DNA from: Escherichia coli
Lineage (GTDB): Bacteria; Pseudomonadota; Gammaproteobacteria; Enterobacterales; Enterobacteriaceae
NCBI RefSeq assembly: GCF_003334385.1
Contig: NZ_QOWN01000044.1
Length of the DNA: 37,124 nucleotides
Reading direction: 5' to 3' (one strand)
The notes under the pieces: generated by a model
The model's input: only the letters and a program-made list of their open reading frames with translations
Database searches by the model: none
Told to the model about the DNA's origin: nothing
Made by a program: the position numbers and the translations under genes
Shown: piece by piece, positions 4,350 through 26,537 of the stretch
How the letters are laid out: the number at the start of each line of letters is the position of its first letter
Position numbering within the stretch: the stretch's first letter is position 1

Positions 4350-4540
4350 CCGCTCTACCTTCGTTATATCCAGGCAGATTTTTTAACTGACTTTCGTTTG
4401 AAAACTGGCGTTTTTCCAAAACTGGATTACAAATAAATATATAAAAAAAACAATGCGTTTAGCCGCCGTTAATTTCATGTAAGTCATGTTGTTCCTTTTA
4501 TTTAACCGCGGACTCCGCTGTTAACCGGAGGATATGCATC

Positions 4541-6526
4541 ATGAAAACCGTTAGGGAGTCCACAACGTTGTACAACTTTCTCGGATCGCACAATCCATAC
4601 TGGCGGTTGACGGAAAGCAGCGATGTTTTGCGCTTTTCTACCACCGAAACCACAGAACCTGATCGTACATTGCAGTTATCTGCCGAACAGGCTGCTCGCA
4701 TCAGGGAAATGACGGTCATCACCTCCAGCCTGATGATGAGTCTGACCGTCGATGAAAGCGATCTTTCTGTGCATCTGGTAGGACGAAAAATCAATAAACG
4801 GGAATGGGCTGGCAACGCGTCTGCATGGCATGACACACCGGCGGTTGCTCGTGATTTATCACACGGGCTTTCCTTTGCTGAGCAGGTAGTTTCTGAAGCA
4901 CATTCCGCAATAGTGATTCTCGACAGCCGGGGAAATATCCAACGCTTCAATCGGTTATGTGAAGATTACACAGGGTTGAAAGAACACGACGTCATTGGGC
5001 AAAGCGTGTTTAAACTGTTTATGAGCCGTCGTGAAGCTGCGGCATCCAGGCGCAATAACCGTGTATTTTTTCGAAGCGGCAATGCATATGAAGTCGAACT
5101 GTGGATACCAACATGTAAAGGCCAGCGGCTGTTTCTGTTTCGCAATAAATTTGTCCACAGCGGTAGTGGCAAAAACGAGATTTTTTTAATCTGTTCCGGC
5201 ACCGACATTACCGAAGAGCGCCGCGCTCAGGAGCGACTGCGTATTCTGGCAAATACCGACAGTATCACCGGACTGCCGAATCGTAACGCAATGCAGGATT
5301 TAATCGATCACGCTATTAATCATGCAGATAACAATAAAGTTGGGGTTGTGTATCTTGATTTGGATAATTTCAAAAAGGTCAACGACGCCTATGGGCATTT
5401 GTTTGGTGACCAGTTATTACGCGACGTGTCATTGGCTATTTTAAGCTGTCTCGAACATGACCAGGTGTTGGCGCGTCCAGGTGGGGATGAGTTTCTGGTA
5501 CTGGCATCCAACACCTCACAAAGCGCGCTGGAAGCAATGGCATCACGAATTTTGACCCGCTTACGGCTCCCCTTTCGCATTGGTTTAATTGAAGTTTATA
5601 CCAGCTGTTCAGTAGGTATTGCACTCTCTCCCGAACATGGTTCAGACAGCACGGCTATTATTCGTCACGCCGACACAGCAATGTACACAGCGAAGGAAGG
5701 CGGACGAGGACAATTTTGCGTTTTTACCCCAGAAATGAATCAACGGGTATTTGAATATCTCTGGCTGGATACCAACTTGCGTAAAGCACTGGAAAACGAT
5801 CAGTTGGTTATTCACTATCAACCGAAAATCACCTGGCGTGGCGAAGTGCGCAGTCTGGAAGCACTAGTACGTTGGCAGTCACCTGAACGTGGGTTGATTC
5901 CACCGTTGGACTTCATTTCCTACGCCGAAGAGTCAGGGCTAATTGTGCCTTTAGGCCGTTGGGTGATTCTCGATGTCGTACGCCAGGTGGCAAAGTGGCG
6001 GGATAAAGGCATAAACCTGCGAGTGGCGGTAAATATTTCTGCACGTCAGCTCGCCGATCAAACCATTTTCACCGCCCTGAAACAGGTTCTCCAGGAACTC
6101 AATTTTGAATACTGCCCTATAGATGTTGAACTGACAGAGAGTTGTCTGATTGAGAATGATGAACTGGCACTGTCTGTTATTCAACAATTTAGCCAACTAG
6201 GTGCGCAAGTGCATCTGGATGATTTTGGTACCGGCTACTCTTCACTTTCGCAACTGGCGCGCTTTCCGATCGATGCCATCAAACTTGACCAGGTTTTTGT
6301 TCGAGATATTCACAAACAACCTGTCTCGCAGTCACTGGTCCGGGCGATCGTCGCTGTGGCCCAGGCATTGAATCTTCAGGTGATCGCCGAAGGTGTAGAG
6401 AGTGCAAAGGAAGATGCTTTTTTAACCAAGAACGGGATCAATGAGCGGCAAGGATTTTTGTTTGCCAAACCGATGCCCGCCGTCGCCTTCGAACGCTGGT
6501 ATAAACGCTATCTGAAGCGCGCATAA
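4541..6526 (+). CDS. pdeR: Cyclic-di-GMP phosphodiesterase PdeR (GGDEF-EAL protein, formerly YciR/Gmr)
   Basis: 661 aa ORF with PAS-like region, GGDEF motif intact (ARPGGDEFLVLA) and EAL motif intact (SLEALVRW). Confidence 0.93.
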   Translation: MKTVRESTTLYNFLGSHNPYWRLTESSDVLRFSTTETTEPDRTLQLSAEQAARIREMTVITSSLMMSLTVDESDLSVHLVGRKINKREWAGNASAWHDTPAVARDLSHGLSFAEQVVSEAHSAIVILDSRGNIQRFNRLCEDYTGLKEHDVIGQSVFKLFMSRREAAASRRNNRVFFRSGNAYEVELWIPTCKGQRLFLFRNKFVHSGSGKNEIFLICSGTDITEERRAQERLRILANTDSITGLPNRNAMQDLIDHAINHADNNKVGVVYLDLDNFKKVNDAYGHLFGDQLLRDVSLAILSCLEHDQVLARPGGDEFLVLASNTSQSALEAMASRILTRLRLPFRIGLIEVYTSCSVGIALSPEHGSDSTAIIRHADTAMYTAKEGGRGQFCVFTPEMNQRVFEYLWLDTNLRKALENDQLVIHYQPKITWRGEVRSLEALVRWQSPERGLIPPLDFISYAEESGLIVPLGRWVILDVVRQVAKWRDKGINLRVAVNISARQLADQTIFTALKQVLQELNFEYCPIDVELTESCLIENDELALSVIQQFSQLGAQVHLDDFGTGYSSLSQLARFPIDAIKLDQVFVRDIHKQPVSQSLVRAIVAVAQALNLQVIAEGVESAKEDAFLTKNGINERQGFLFAKPMPAVAFERWYKRYLKRA

Positions 6527-6673
6527 GTAGATGAATATATATACTTAGCGCTATATCCCGTCATTATATATCGTATTCCTGGATGATAATTAGCCGTTGC
6601 TGTTAAACACTTCTCTTTTAGCGGCAATTTTTGCATTATTCATTTTCCCCCTTTTGCTATAAGGATGTCCTTG

Positions 6674-6847
6674 ATGTCTGAATTTGATGCCCAGCGCGTT
6701 GCCGAACGTATTGATATTGTGTTAGATATCCTTGTGGCAGGCGATTACCACTCTGCGATCCATAATCTCGAGATACTTAAAGCAGAACTCTTGCGCCAGG
6801 TTGCTGAATCTACGCCAGACATCCCGAAGGCACCGTGGGAGATTTAA
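6674..6847 (+). CDS. yciZ: Small protein YciZ (UPF0509 family)
   Basis: 57 aa from the second in-frame ATG ([26 protein letters not shown]...). AAGGA at 6661-6665 sits about 8 nt upstream of this ATG. The ORF-track start at 6665 is 3 codons further upstream. Confidence 0.75.
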
Positions 6848-6936
6848 CAATCGTGCCTTCAGGTTTTCCTATTTGAGGATGCCCGGCGCGTCAGTATTTT
6901 TTTATTAAGTATTATAACGTTATAAGAATTACAGCG

Positions 6937-7686
6937 ATGAATTCCCGACAACAAACTATTCTACAGATGGTCATTGACCAGGGTCAGGTTAGCGTAACCG
7001 ATCTGGCAAAAGCCACTGGAGTTTCTGAAGTTACCATTCGCCAGGATCTCAACACACTCGAAAAACTGAGTTACCTCCGCCGTGCACATGGCTTTGCTGT
7101 TTCGCTTGATAGTGATGACGTCGAAACCCGTATGATGAGCAACTATACGCTGAAGCGTGAACTCGCCGAGTTTGCCGCGTCGCTGGTTCAACCGGGCGAA
7201 ACCATCTTTATCGAAAATGGCAGCAGCAATGCCCTACTCGCCCGGACTCTGGGCGAGCAGAAGAAAAATGTCACTATCATCACGGTCAGCAGCTACATCG
7301 CGCATTTGCTGAAAGACGCGCCTTGTGAAGTTATTTTGCTCGGTGGCGTGTATCAGAAAAAAAGCGAAAGTATGGTTGGCCCTTTGACACGCCAGTGCAT
7401 CCAACAGGTGCATTTCAGCAAAGCATTTATTGGTATTGATGGCTGGCAACCTGAAACTGGATTTACCGGTCGCGATATGATGCGTACCGATGTGGTCAAT
7501 GCCGTGCTGGAAAAAGAGTGCGAAGCGATAGTCCTGACTGACAGCTCGAAATTTGGTGCTGTACATTCATACTCCATCGGTCCCGTTGAGCGATTCAATC
7601 GCGTGATTACCGATTCGAAAATACGCGCCAGCGATCTGATGCATCTTGAGCACAGTAAACTCACCGTTCACGTCGTTGACATTTAA
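6937..7686 (+). CDS. yciT: DeoR-family transcriptional regulator YciT
   Basis: 249 aa; N-terminal HTH ([25 protein letters not shown]) and C-terminal DeoR sugar-binding-like domain. Confidence 0.9.
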
Positions 7687-7702
7687 CCATTTCCCTTCTC
7701 TA

Positions 7703-7732
7703 CGGATGATTTGCAGTTTGGCAAATCATCCG
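7703..7732 (+). terminator. Perfect 12-bp stem-loop downstream of yciT (no U-tract)
   Basis: CGGATGATTTGC-agtttg-GCAAATCATCCG at 7703-7732, 17 nt after the yciT stop. Lacks a T-run, so it may be a Rho-dependent or RNA-stabilising structure rather than an intrinsic terminator. Confidence 0.4.
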
Positions 7733-7954
7733 CTCTAAGATGATTCCTGGTTGATAATTAAGACTATTTACCTGTTATTAACACTCTCAAGATATAAAAT
7801 TATTATCAGCGATATAACAGGAAGTCATTATCACCTGCGTGATATAACCCTGCGCGCGAGCAGATTTCACGGAATAATTTCACCAGGCTTATTCTTAGCT
7901 ATTATAGTTATAGAGAGCTTACTTCCGTGAATCATAAATTCAGGAGAGAGTATT

Positions 7955-8173
7955 ATGTTTGTAACGAGCAAAAAAATGACCGCGGCTGTTCTGGCAATTA
8001 CTTTGGCAATGTCTCTGAGTGCCTGTTCTAACTGGTCTAAACGGGACCGCAACACCGCAATCGGCGCGGGTGCAGGGGCATTAGGCGGTGCAGTACTGAC
8101 CGATGGCAGTACGTTGGGTACATTAGGTGGTGCAGCTGTCGGTGGTGTTATTGGTCACCAGGTCGGTAAATAA
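7955..8173 (+). CDS. osmB: Osmotically inducible lipoprotein OsmB
   Basis: 72 aa; signal peptide with lipobox LSAC followed by a Gly/Ala-rich mature region. GGAGAG upstream of the ATG. Confidence 0.93.
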   Translation: MFVTSKKMTAAVLAITLAMSLSACSNWSKRDRNTAIGAGAGALGGAVLTDGSTLGTLGGAAVGGVIGHQVGK

Positions 8174-8270
8174 TCGTAAATAAATGTCGATTATCGACTC
8201 GCAATTATAATACGCTTGATTCTGTTCAGTACGAAATAACTGAATAATACGCACAGTAAAATATTCGAAA

Positions 8271-8296
8271 GCCACGGATATATCCGTGGCTTTTTA
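8271..8296. terminator. Bidirectional intrinsic terminator between convergent osmB and yciH
   Basis: GCCACGGATA / TATCCGTGGC perfect palindrome followed by TTTTT on the plus strand and a T-rich run on the minus strand. Confidence 0.7.
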
Positions 8297-8298
8297 TG

Positions 8299-8628
8299 TT
8301 AACCGCCTGCGAGTTTTACCTTCATCCCTTTCGCTTCAAGTAGTGATTTTAATAAATCACGCTTATCGCCCTGGATTTCAATAACTCCATCTTTAACTGC
8401 TCCGCCGCAGCCGCATTTTTTCTTCAGTTCCGCTGCAAGTTTTGTCAGTTCGGCATCATCGAGATCGACACCGGTAATCAGGCAAACGCCCTTACCTTTA
8501 CGTCCACTGGTCTGACGCTGAATACGCACCACACCGTCGCCTTTAGGGCGTACAGGGGCCGCTTTGGGCTCATCAATACGTCCGGTTTCCGTTGAGTAGA
8601 CCAGACGGCTGTTGGAATCACTCATCAT
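8299..8628 (-). CDS. yciH: SUI1/eIF1-family translation factor YciH
   Basis: 109 aa from the first of two tandem ATGs ([17 protein letters not shown]...). Overlaps the pyrF stop (ATGATGA); the second ATG would give 108 aa. Confidence 0.9.
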
Positions 8629-9362
8629 GCACTCCGCTGTAAAGAGGCGTTGATCGCTTTCAGCGTCTGCGCTGGATCTACCGATTGCGTTACCGGGCGA
8701 CCAATCACCATATAATCAACACCAGCCGACAACGCCTGTTCTGGCGTCATAATGCGGCGCTGGTCACCAGCTTCACTCCCCTGCGGACGAATGCCCGGCG
8801 TAACCAGTTTGAACTCCTGACCGAATACCTGTTTAAAGCGCACAGCTTCCTGAGCAGAACACACCACACCATCAAGGCCACATTTTTGCGTCAGTGCCGC
8901 CAGACGTTCTGCATAATCTGCAGGTGACAGTGTCATGCCAAGATCGACCAGGTCGCTGGCTTCCATGCTGGTCAACACTGTCACAGCAATCAAAAGCGGT
9001 GCATCTTTGCCAAACGGAACCAGTGCCTCACGCGCTGCGGTCATCATACGCGCCCCACCAGAGGCATGAACATTCACCATCCACACGCCTAAGTCAGCTG
9101 CAGCAGCGACAGCGTGCGCTGCAGTGTTGGGGATATCGTGGAATTTCAGGTCAAGAAAGATATCAAAACCACGCTGTTGAAGTTCGCGCACAAACTGTGG
9201 CCCAAACAATGTAAACATCTCTTTGCCGACCTTCAGACGACAATCGCGTGGGTCGATCTTGTCGACAAAGGCCAGCGCGTCATCACGATTATGATAATCA
9301 AGGGCAACAACCACAGGAGAATTCGTAACAGCGCGGGAAGAAGATGAAGCAGTTAACGTCAT
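8625..9362 (-). CDS. pyrF: Orotidine-5'-phosphate decarboxylase
   Basis: ORF track gives 8625..9422. I place the start at the ATG at 9362 ([22 protein letters not shown]...), giving 245 aa. Conserved DLKFHDIP active-site region present. Confidence 0.93.
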
Positions 9363-20870: not shown

Positions 20871-20902
20871 AAACGCGAGGTCTTAGCCTCGCGTTTGTCT
20901 TT
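20871..20902. terminator. Terminator hairpin between convergent yciN and sohB
   Basis: AACGCGAGG-tcttag-CCTCGCGTT followed by TGTCTTTT, immediately after the yciN stop. Confidence 0.6.
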
Positions 20903-24431: not shown

Positions 24432-24641
24432 AGAGCTTCCTTTTGGTGTCGCCTTCCCAGGCGTCTGATATGCTTTTGTGCAACAGTGAGTCAGAACTTA
24501 CATCTGACTCACTGATAGTAAAGTCTGTTTGAACTCTTCAGGCCTTAAGTAAACGACTCGACGTTTATCGGCCTGGCTTTGAGGCGCAACATACTACACT
24601 ATCTTTATGGTTAAAGCTTGTTTCGATTAACATCAGCTTAA

Positions 24642-26537
24642 TTACCAGCCACCACCGCCTCCGCCACCCGCGCCGCCGCCAGCACCACCACCGGAATAAC
24701 TTCGCCCCAACAAACTGGTATTGGCCCCGCAACTTAGGTGCGTCTGTAATGAGAATAAAACGCCGTTACGGGCAATCTCTGGAGCGCGAATCGCCGAAGA
24801 AAGCGAAGGGGCAATGCGTAACGCCCATTCCCTCCCCAAATTTGCCGATATAGCCCAACCTAGCAACGCGTAATCCAGTTTCCGTGTTTCCCCTTTCCGC
24901 CGACGTCCACTGTGTGTTGCTGCCTCTTTACGCGCAAGATAGTTAACGATAGCTTCACCGTGGGCATAACGTTGCTGTCCAGTTTGGGTAAACTTTGGCA
25001 GAAAAATATACCCCATGCCAGTGAGATAACCGGTCAGGCAAACAGCGGTAAAATAACCCGCTGGCATATACCAGTAAAAGAATACATCTCCGACATTGAT
25101 GTAGAGAGAATAGAAGGCCACGCCTGAACAAATCAGTGGTAAAAACAAAGTGATGATTACACGATTAACGCAAGGCTTGTCATCATCGCGGGCAAACAAA
25201 AGCTCAAGGGAACAAAATAAAAAAGGAATAATCCAGCAGATCATAATAAACATATCGCCCACCAGACTCATTCCTGCCCAGCCTACAGGACTCAAGTTAC
25301 CGTAAAGAATGACCGCCAATATTGCCAGTCCACCCCATTGCAAAAAAGTATCAGACCGGTAAAACGAAGACTTTTTACGCGGCAGATAAAATTTCTGCAT
25401 CCGTAAAAATGCCCTGCGTAAGACTCTGTTGCGTCTCCCCGTAAGAACGACCTTATCGCCTTTACGAAATAACGCTTCCAGTAATAACTGCTCTGCGGGC
25501 AGTAATACCGCATTATTTCTGGTCGCGCCTTCATTAACACGAATCAGGATTTGCTGGTTCTTGTCAGACTGATCTTCCAGATGAATTTTTCCTTTCACAA
25601 TCAGATTTACGATATCGGCACAAAAACCTTTATCGTCGTAAACTAGCTTCGCATCGAGACGTAACATGCCGGGCGTGTAATCTGGCGGAATGACATCGGT
25701 TTCAATCACATCTACCGGCGTAAATTGCGGCCTGCGCTTCCAGAGATATAACCATCCACAAACCAGGAACAGACACGGAAACCAAATTAACAACGATGAC
25801 GTGGAGGGTAAAAGAAGATGGCTGAAAATATTCGTCGTTTGCGGAGCCGAGGCATTGCTAAGTAAAGCGTGAGGCCAGCGGTAGAGGACCGTGAAATCTT
25901 CACGATAAAACGGATCGCGGGATTCAATTCTTCCGTCCTCAAGGATGCGGCCATTACGATATGTGTCGCCCTCTTCTCCGGTAAAGAGATCGATTTCGCT
26001 AAATGGATTACCCGCAATATTAGAGAACTGGAGAGAAAAACGGGTCTTATAAATTTCAAACGGCCAGTGGTTACCGGTCACGTTCCAGATTAGCAGATCA
26101 GAATCCCCCTCACGCAGGAAAGCATTTTTAACCTGATAATGAATTTGATAATGATAGTCGCCTTGAGGCAAGAAACGTTGTTTATCGCCCACGACAATAC
26201 TCATTAACCCGATATGCCAGTCAAGATGCCAGGGTTCAGGAATACCATCACGGGTGACGCCAACAATATGATAGTTCAGCAGTGCAGCGTCCCCATCAGG
26301 CTGCATCCATAGTCGTGGTAAATCACGATAAAAGCCGTGCTTAATCTGCTGATTTCGCGCCTGAAAATGAATATTTTCTTTGATGTCGAGCACCCCATCT
26401 GGTTGCAGAGTGGCTTCAACATCAAAGAGCGAGATCCCTTCTTCATAAGAAGGGATCTCCGTGTTTTCTGCATAACTTAGAGATGATACAAACAGCCCTG
26501 CTATCAACAGCAAAATGCAGCGAAACTTCCCTGCCAT
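24642..26537 (-). CDS. yciQ: DUF2207-family membrane protein YciQ
   Basis: 631 aa; N-terminal signal/transmembrane segment, several central transmembrane helices, and a Gly-rich C-terminal tail. Confidence 0.88.
   Translation of the reverse strand: MAGKFRCILLLIAGLFVSSLSYAENTEIPSYEEGISLFDVEATLQPDGVLDIKENIHFQARNQQIKHGFYRDLPRLWMQPDGDAALLNYHIVGVTRDGIPEPWHLDWHIGLMSIVVGDKQRFLPQGDYHYQIHYQVKNAFLREGDSDLLIWNVTGNHWPFEIYKTRFSLQFSNIAGNPFSEIDLFTGEEGDTYRNGRILEDGRIESRDPFYREDFTVLYRWPHALLSNASAPQTTNIFSHLLLPSTSSLLIWFPCLFLVCGWLYLWKRRPQFTPVDVIETDVIPPDYTPGMLRLDAKLVYDDKGFCADIVNLIVKGKIHLEDQSDKNQQILIRVNEGATRNNAVLLPAEQLLLEALFRKGDKVVLTGRRNRVLRRAFLRMQKFYLPRKKSSFYRSDTFLQWGGLAILAVILYGNLSPVGWAGMSLVGDMFIMICWIIPFLFCSLELLFARDDDKPCVNRVIITLFLPLICSGVAFYSLYINVGDVFFYWYMPAGYFTAVCLTGYLTGMGYIFLPKFTQTGQQRYAHGEAIVNYLARKEAATHSGRRRKGETRKLDYALLGWAISANLGREWALRIAPSLSSAIRAPEIARNGVLFSLQTHLSCGANTSLLGRSYSGGGAGGGAGGGGGGGW

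Follow-up and report, generated by a model that had tools for sequence, protein, structure and literature searches.

The intergenic region between yciT and osmB of Escherichia coli contains a perfect palindrome, which raises the question of whether this element is recognized as DNA, in the manner of an operator next to the osmB promoters, or acts as RNA at the end of the yciT message. We analyzed this region within a 37,124-nt stretch of an E. coli genome (hereinafter, the window) that is colinear with the minus strand of MG1655, with the NC_000913.3 coordinate equal to 1351283 minus the window coordinate. The yciT gene (deoT; b1284 in MG1655), which encodes a DeoR-family regulator, occupies positions 6937-7686 on the + strand according to the list of open reading frames and the E. 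coli annotation. The downstream gene, osmB, occupies positions 7955-8173 on the same strand, again according to both the open reading frame list and the annotation of E. coli genomes and MG1655. The spacer between the yciT stop codon, which ends at 7686, and the osmB ATG at 7955 has matches with 95-100% identity in 5423 of the 5426 complete E. coli genomes.

A strong, U-poor stem-loop downstream of yciT

The two arms of the inverted repeat, 7703-7714 (CGGATGATTTGC) and 7721-7732 (GCAAATCATCCG), are complementary at all 12 of the 12 positions and are separated by a 6-nt loop. The hairpin starts 16 nt past the yciT stop codon and ends 222 nt before the osmB ATG, in agreement with the first-pass annotation of this DNA, where a perfect 12-bp inverted repeat was placed just after yciT and about 220 bp upstream of osmB. 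The same annotation described a strong stem-loop without a U-tract, and this description holds as well: the predicted folding energy of the + strand RNA is -19.2 kcal/mol (z-score of -5.45, with none of the 200 shuffled sequences folding as well), and the tail that follows the stem, CUCUAAGA, contains 2 U in 8 nt. No A-tract precedes the stem (the upstream sequence is CCAUUUCCCUUCUCUA), and 5 of the 12 pairs in the stem are G-C. A consensus terminator scan that called the osmB/yciH terminator at 8268-8293 did not call the hairpin at 7703-7732, and a scan of the region 6400-8700 against Rfam, with E-values up to 10, yielded no match at the hairpin or in the osmB leader.

In dinucleotide shuffles of the window, perfect inverted repeats of at least 12 bp with loops of 3-10 nt number 0.01 on average, and 1% of the shuffled sequences contain any; the window itself contains three such sites, 7703-7732, 24484-24514 and 26431-26459. 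Perfect inverted repeats of 10-13 bp are found, apart from the yciT hairpin, at 8268-8293, 20871-20896, 24484-24514 and 26431-26459, the first of which is the bidirectional osmB/yciH terminator, with T-runs on both sides.

The remainder of the intergenic region is AT-rich, as stated previously, with 35% G+C in 7733-7954 vs 49% in yciT. The 16-nt segment between the stop codon and the hairpin (7687-7702, + strand), which varies in sequence between genera, is C/U-rich and contains 7 C and no G. This segment lies inside a local maximum of C over G, with a mild bias (C/G of 1.85) in the 78-nt interval 7625-7702 and weak values, about 1.05-1.56, downstream of the hairpin; it could be a candidate Rho loading (rut-like) segment.

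The mapped 3' end of the yciT transcript

The dominant 3' end of yciT was mapped by Term-seq (Adams et al. 2021; PMC7815308, Supplementary file 1) to NC_000913.3 position 1343547 on the minus strand and assigned to the class 'primary'; this end corresponds to window position 7736 on the + strand, that is, the fourth nucleotide past the stem in the yciT sense strand. The mean read counts at this end are 107065 in LB at OD 0.4 and 37489 in M63 at OD 0.4, and the end is absent from the curated list for LB at OD 2.0 (PMC7815308). Mapping of transcript ends had been put forward in the first-pass annotation as the way to check the hairpin, and the outcome of this check is positive, with a published dominant end next to the stem under two growth conditions. 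Because the dominant yciT 3' end is located 4 nt past the stem, the hairpin marks the boundary of the yciT transcript just upstream of the osmB control region. There is no yciT entry in the supplements of the TERMITe paper.

An orphan, bicyclomycin-sensitive region of Rho termination has been reported at 1343365 on the minus strand (Adams et al. 2021; PMC7815308, Supplementary file 2). Its peak, at window position 7918 on the + strand (Rho score of 3.63, p = 9.7e-9), is about 180 nt downstream of the yciT 3' end, inside the osmB promoter region. The reads upstream and downstream of the peak are 101/25 without bicyclomycin and 259/233 with bicyclomycin (PMC7815308). However, the Rho score was computed in 800-nt windows around 7918, a point that falls on the downstream osmB promoter; these windows take in osmB together with its own promoters, so that the signal is ambiguous with respect to yciT, and the increase in the presence of bicyclomycin could reflect induction of the osmB promoters instead of read-through from yciT. 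A search of the literature on osmB or rcsA with bicyclomycin yielded nothing usable.

Alternatively, an endonuclease, RNase E for instance, might cut a yciT-osmB co-transcript and leave the end at 7736 after limited trimming. The sequence past the stem is AU-rich and single-stranded, and read-through into osmB goes up with bicyclomycin, both in line with such a cut. However, the site, CU|AA, is unlike the preference of RNase E, which is for R at -2 and U at +2, and the stem is too short for RNase III; we consider this origin of the yciT 3' end very unlikely.

Conservation of the hairpin among Enterobacteriaceae

For comparison, we employed 80 Enterobacteriaceae yciT loci, each taken from the genome of a different species. 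A stable hairpin, with an energy of about -9 to -22 kcal/mol, is present 5-19 nt past the yciT stop codon in almost all of the 80 loci; at least 5 T in the 8 nt that follow the hairpin are found in 6 of these loci, the other 74 being without a U-tract. Homologous hairpins are confined to Escherichia, Citrobacter and Salmonella, in which the 10-bp core, GATGATTTG/CAAATCATC, is invariant and the loop and flanks differ. In Enterobacter, Kosakonia, Leclercia, Kluyvera, Atlantibacter and others, this position is occupied by GC-rich hairpins of unrelated sequence. Given that nearly all 80 loci have a hairpin and that the sequences are unrelated between groups of genera, it is a hairpin at this position, mostly devoid of a U-tract, that is conserved, rather than a sequence. 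The locus is a clear example of a terminal hairpin that has long been kept in place while its sequence and the U-tract come and go.

Within the Escherichia/Citrobacter/Salmonella clade, 91% of the cells of the stem alignment are paired. One pair takes the form A-U in 9 sequences and the form G-C in 8, and 17 cells are G·U wobbles that result from one-sided changes; the 11-bp core of the aligned stem (columns 22-32) includes a single A·C cell, and pairing is absent from 17 of the 44 cells of the two outermost pairs (columns 20/51 and 21/50). When counted symmetrically with respect to strand, the 79 distinct sequences yielded 30 G·T vs 13 A·C, these counts being not phylogenetically independent. 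The G·U bias of the one-sided changes, as read from the aligned sequences, favors selection on RNA of the yciT sense. The two strands do not differ in folding energy: in a fair comparison, the best hairpin energies per strand are -14.78 and -14.80 kcal/mol. An initial comparison that singled out the + strand was biased, in that the hairpin had been chosen on that strand, and was rejected. Because the folding energies are equal on both strands, the strand assignment rests on the Term-seq end and the wobble counts.

In the four variant E. coli genomes that were sampled, the differences from the window are confined to the loop or the loop-closing pair. In the O157:H7-type strain SRCC 1675, G7721A disrupts the C-G pair that closes the loop, so that the stem is shortened to 11 bp and the loop enlarged to 8 nt; a second O157:H7 match shows the same identity as SRCC 1675. 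In the three other variant genomes sampled, only loop positions 7715 and 7720 are changed. Locus L002 (JAEWQO010000093.1), a 3.6-kb contig that bears the label 'MAG: Actinomycetes bacterium', codes for the same YciT protein as the window and matches the window over 70 nt past the stop codon, the hairpin included, as well as in the 268-nt length of the spacer; this contig is almost certainly E. coli contamination in a metagenome bin.

The U-tracts in some of the relatives bear on the main rival reading of the hairpin, namely, that it is a weak, non-canonical intrinsic terminator, where polymerase would pause and be released in part at CUCU without a proper U-tract, maybe with Rho as a back-up, and the Term-seq end would reflect true termination. 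Like a canonical intrinsic terminator, the yciT locus has a strong hairpin soon after the stop codon and an RNA end a few nucleotides past the stem, exactly at the expected point of release, and some of the orthologous sites in other genera come with genuine U-tracts in place, for example, ACGCCCG..CGGGCGTTTTTT in Leclercia and GCCCGC..GCGGGC followed by TTTTTC in Enterobacter sp. Cy-643 (locus L069). These U-tracts suggest that two modes of termination interchange at this site, as proposed by Dar and Sorek (PMC6061677). However, a G+C-rich stem directly followed by a run of U, the hallmark of the canonical terminators, is not what is found in yciT, where the stem is A/U-rich, with the G-C pairs in the minority, the 8 nt past it include only 2 U, and the consensus scan makes no call. 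In addition, the 74 relatives without a U-tract and the reported Rho-sensitive region downstream do not fit this reading, which we consider possible but rather unlikely.

Recognition of the palindrome as DNA or RNA

It had been suggested in the first-pass annotation that the repeat might be an operator-like palindrome. Under this hypothesis, the palindrome would be bound as DNA by a dimeric factor, YciT or another, that controls osmB or autoregulates yciT. Similarly to the operators of the DeoR family, a perfect dyad is located beside a regulated promoter, here next to the osmB control region, and the neighboring gene codes for a regulator of the DeoR type. Furthermore, the invariance of the 10-bp core in Escherichia, Citrobacter and Salmonella, against a varying loop and flanks, and the 3.6-fold increase of osmB expression (log2 of 1.83, padj of 0.011) in a published yciT deletion strain are what an operator could produce; this increase could also be due to polar read-through or an indirect effect.

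However, unlike the DeoR-family operators, the palindrome shows neither occupancy by YciT nor likeness to a YciT-bound site. None of the 49 YciT sites detected by ChIP-exo (Gao et al. 2021; PMC8464067) is in the yciT-osmB spacer, and the nearest one is upstream of pdeR, at NC_000913.2 1344894-1344924, which is 4383-4413 in the window (PMC8464067). This site contains a dyad, TTTCGTTTGAAA, the sequence of which is unlike the palindrome. With a ChIP-exo site upstream of pdeR and none in the spacer, YciT thus binds near the neighboring pdeR gene and not at the palindrome at its own 3' end. Moreover, in other genera, the hairpin is kept with an unrelated sequence, the one-sided changes show a strand-specific bias to G·U, which would be expected of RNA but not of DNA recognition, and an RNA 3' end maps at the palindrome. 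Of the two properties of a transcription factor operator, occupancy (examined for YciT) and conservation of the sequence in preference to that of the pairing, neither was observed; the pattern of substitutions and the turnover of the sequence both indicate RNA. The operator hypothesis appears extremely unlikely and was abandoned: most likely, the palindrome functions in the RNA of the yciT sense strand and is not a protein-binding operator.

As RNA, the stem-loop could, in principle, be recognized by its sequence by a protein such as ProQ, or it could terminate a stable fragment that derives from the 3' portion of yciT and has a function of its own. In line with this possibility, the stem sequence is invariant in the three genera despite saturated divergence of the flanks, and the number of Term-seq reads is rather high considering that yciT is a regulator gene of low abundance (107065, compared to 70689 for ribA and 223252 for fabI; PMC7815308). 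Small RNAs of the Hfq type that derive from 3' untranslated regions have a conserved seed and a U-tailed terminator; at the yciT hairpin, there is no conserved single-stranded seed, with both the spacer and the loop varying, and no U-tail for Hfq. Together with the lack of an Rfam match and the unrelated hairpins in the more distant genera, these features make such a role improbable. It is distinctly improbable that the hairpin, as a site for a ProQ-like chaperone or as the end of a yciT 3' fragment beside the RcsB box of osmB, couples yciT transcription to the activity of the osmB promoter.

Two other candidates were considered and rejected. The heptamer GATGATT of the hairpin arms is also present in the RcsB box of osmB, but the arms, inspected by eye, do not fit the RcsB consensus. 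The hairpin also shares with REP/BIME elements the character of an intergenic palindrome that is able to block 3' exonucleases at the end of an mRNA. However, these elements form a family of many dispersed copies, unlike the yciT palindrome, which is single-copy: an 81-nt query matched a median of 1 place per genome in the 5423 E. coli genomes, and the arm motif has no second copy in the window.

A Rho-dependent, exonuclease-trimmed 3' end as the most likely explanation

The hypothesis that Rho-dependent transcripts carry terminal protective stem-loops was reportedly advanced by Peters et al. in 2012. In the study of Dar and Sorek (2018; PMC6061677), nearly all Rho-dependent transcripts of E. 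coli were found to end just past stable stem-loops that resemble terminators but have neither a U-tract nor an upstream A-tract. These ends are made by PNPase and RNase II, which trim a longer primary transcript down to the stem, and the Rho-dependent genes are, on average, weakly expressed (PMC6061677).

The yciT hairpin conforms to this class in every criterion of sequence. As in the protective stem-loops of Rho-dependent transcripts, a stable stem-loop is located immediately upstream of a sharp Term-seq 3' end, the content of U after the stem is low, and no A-tract precedes the stem; the upstream gene is weakly expressed. The bias of C over G, which is mild, and the bicyclomycin-sensitive region downstream, which is ambiguous given that the published signal overlaps the osmB promoters, are further points of possible likeness. 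The assignment of 7703-7732 (+ strand) as the 3'-terminal stem-loop of the yciT mRNA draws on the fold, the shuffles, the Term-seq end, the positional conservation and the compensatory and wobble changes. Taking this evidence together, we conclude, with moderate confidence, that this is a U-poor terminal stem-loop, most likely of the Rho-dependent, exonuclease-trimmed type.

Under this scenario, RNA polymerase leaving yciT would transcribe the hairpin and, without a U-tract, would mostly run on into the AT-rich spacer between yciT and osmB. Rho would load on the untranslated, C-rich and G-poor RNA around and after the stop codon, and the transcript would be released within the next ~200 nt. 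PNPase and RNase II would then trim the unstructured tail until blocked by the 12-bp stem, and the message would thereby acquire a stable and sharply defined 3' end, located 4 nt past the stem. The hairpin would accordingly both set and protect the 3' end of yciT. We infer that Rho acts on yciT transcripts specifically, that trimming takes place and that the hairpin has a protective effect on the yciT mRNA.

The feature is real and functional but ordinary: its kind has already been catalogued, and both the 3' end and the Rho region are already present in public catalogues. Beyond annotation, its importance is small: it accounts for the end point of the yciT message in a genome that has been studied very thoroughly.

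The osmB control region next to the hairpin

The RcsB box of the upstream osmB promoter (TAAGATGATTCCTG, 7736-7749) matches 8 of the 9 specified positions of the consensus TN(G/A)GAN4TC(T/C)NA (PMC7913699) and is homologous to a Salmonella box. The latter, TAAGACTTTTCTGA, located at -215 from the osmB ATG in Salmonella, binds phosphorylated RcsB in EMSA (PMC7913699), and, by sequence, 7736-7749 is the E. coli counterpart of this box. The first base of the box, 7736, coincides with the mapped yciT 3' end. Because the box begins 3 nt past the stem, the mature 3' end of yciT is the first base of the osmB control region. When yciT deletions or osmB promoter fusions are constructed, the hairpin should be kept or removed deliberately, since its end abuts the RcsB box.

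Both the RcsB box and a second block, AATTAAGACTATTTACCTGT (7757-7776), are conserved across genera. The block lies 21 nt beyond the start of the box, consists of near-invariant columns in alignment A2, is conserved even better than the box itself and overlaps the predicted -35 element of the upstream osmB promoter; it contains a perfect left half-site for RcsB and a poor right half. We infer that this block belongs to the upstream osmB promoter. The predicted -10 element of this Rcs-dependent promoter, TAAAAT (7795-7800, + strand), is conserved in alignment A2. In Salmonella, the osmB transcription start site is 73 nt past the start of the RcsB box (PMC7913699), and alignment with the Salmonella sequence would place the upstream start in E. 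coli at about 7808-7809. A downstream promoter of the sigma-S type has the -10 element TATAGT (7903-7908, + strand), identified by a promoter scan and by conservation in alignments A2 and A3; other genera have CTATACT at this site. The two-promoter arrangement of osmB is attributed to Boulanger 2005, as cited elsewhere in the literature, and the positions given here for the two promoters in E. coli should be regarded as predicted.

This organization bears on a further claim of the first-pass annotation, that the hairpin might insulate the osmB promoters from yciT read-through. The claim is borne out insofar as the hairpin is located at the boundary of the yciT transcript; insulation by the hairpin itself is doubtful, given the absence of a U-tract and the location of the Rho region ~180 nt further on, inside the osmB promoter region. 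For the same reasons, it is probable that polymerases continue beyond the hairpin and that the RNA is then shortened to it by trimming. Should Rho act downstream, the polymerases coming from yciT would cross both osmB promoters before release, and hence the hairpin alone would not be an insulator.

A covarying helix in the osmB leader

The comparison of osmB leaders also brought out a long-range 9-bp RNA helix formed by 7866-7874 (UUCACGGAA) and 7923-7931 (UUCCGUGAA), which brackets the downstream sigma-S promoter. In a comparison of 75 distinct Enterobacteriaceae sequences, paired cells make up 95% of this helix; one of its pairs occurs as C-G in 63 sequences, as U-A in 9 and as U-G in 3, without a single mismatch. 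Double changes account for 12 cells vs 2.0 ± 1.3 in shuffles, none of the 500 shuffles reaching 12, and 36 one-sided changes produce G·U wobbles when read in the osmB sense. The core of the helix was predicted independently by RNAalifold, and the Rfam scan of 6400-8700 (E-values up to 10) matched no family to it.

In the long leader of osmB, the helix is present in both the minimum free energy and the centroid folds, and UUCC (7923-7926) is taken up by the upstream arm. In the short leader, which starts from the downstream promoter, the predicted partner of UUCC is the Shine-Dalgarno GGAG (7943-7946), and that of UGAAU is AUUCA; the bases involved in this predicted 7923-7946 pairing are too conserved to show covariation. 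In these models, access of the ribosome to the osmB message, and hence translation, may depend on which promoter is used.

Repeated motifs in the AT-rich spacer

Repeated GATATAA motifs had been noted in the first-pass annotation at 7783-7840. Three exact copies indeed exist on the + strand, at 7791-7797, 7811-7817 and 7841-7847; the third copy, however, lies beyond 7840, and the copies do not represent a conserved repeated motif. Three occurrences of GATATAA were seen in none of the 2000 local shuffles, but three copies of any 7-mer were seen in 4.6% of the local shuffles, so that the repeat is weakly above chance and largely coincidental. The first copy overlaps the conserved TAAAAT, and the third is confined to Escherichia, with partial retention in Salmonella. 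The middle copy alone is invariant across genera, inside the conserved block TAGCGATATAACAGGAAGT of alignment A2. The block TAGCGATATAACAGGAAGTnACTATCACCTGCGTGAT, at 7806-7845, is nearly invariant across genera. Within this block, a 6-bp dyad, TATCAC (7829-7834)/GTGATA (7839-7844), forms a hairpin in the predicted long leader of osmB.
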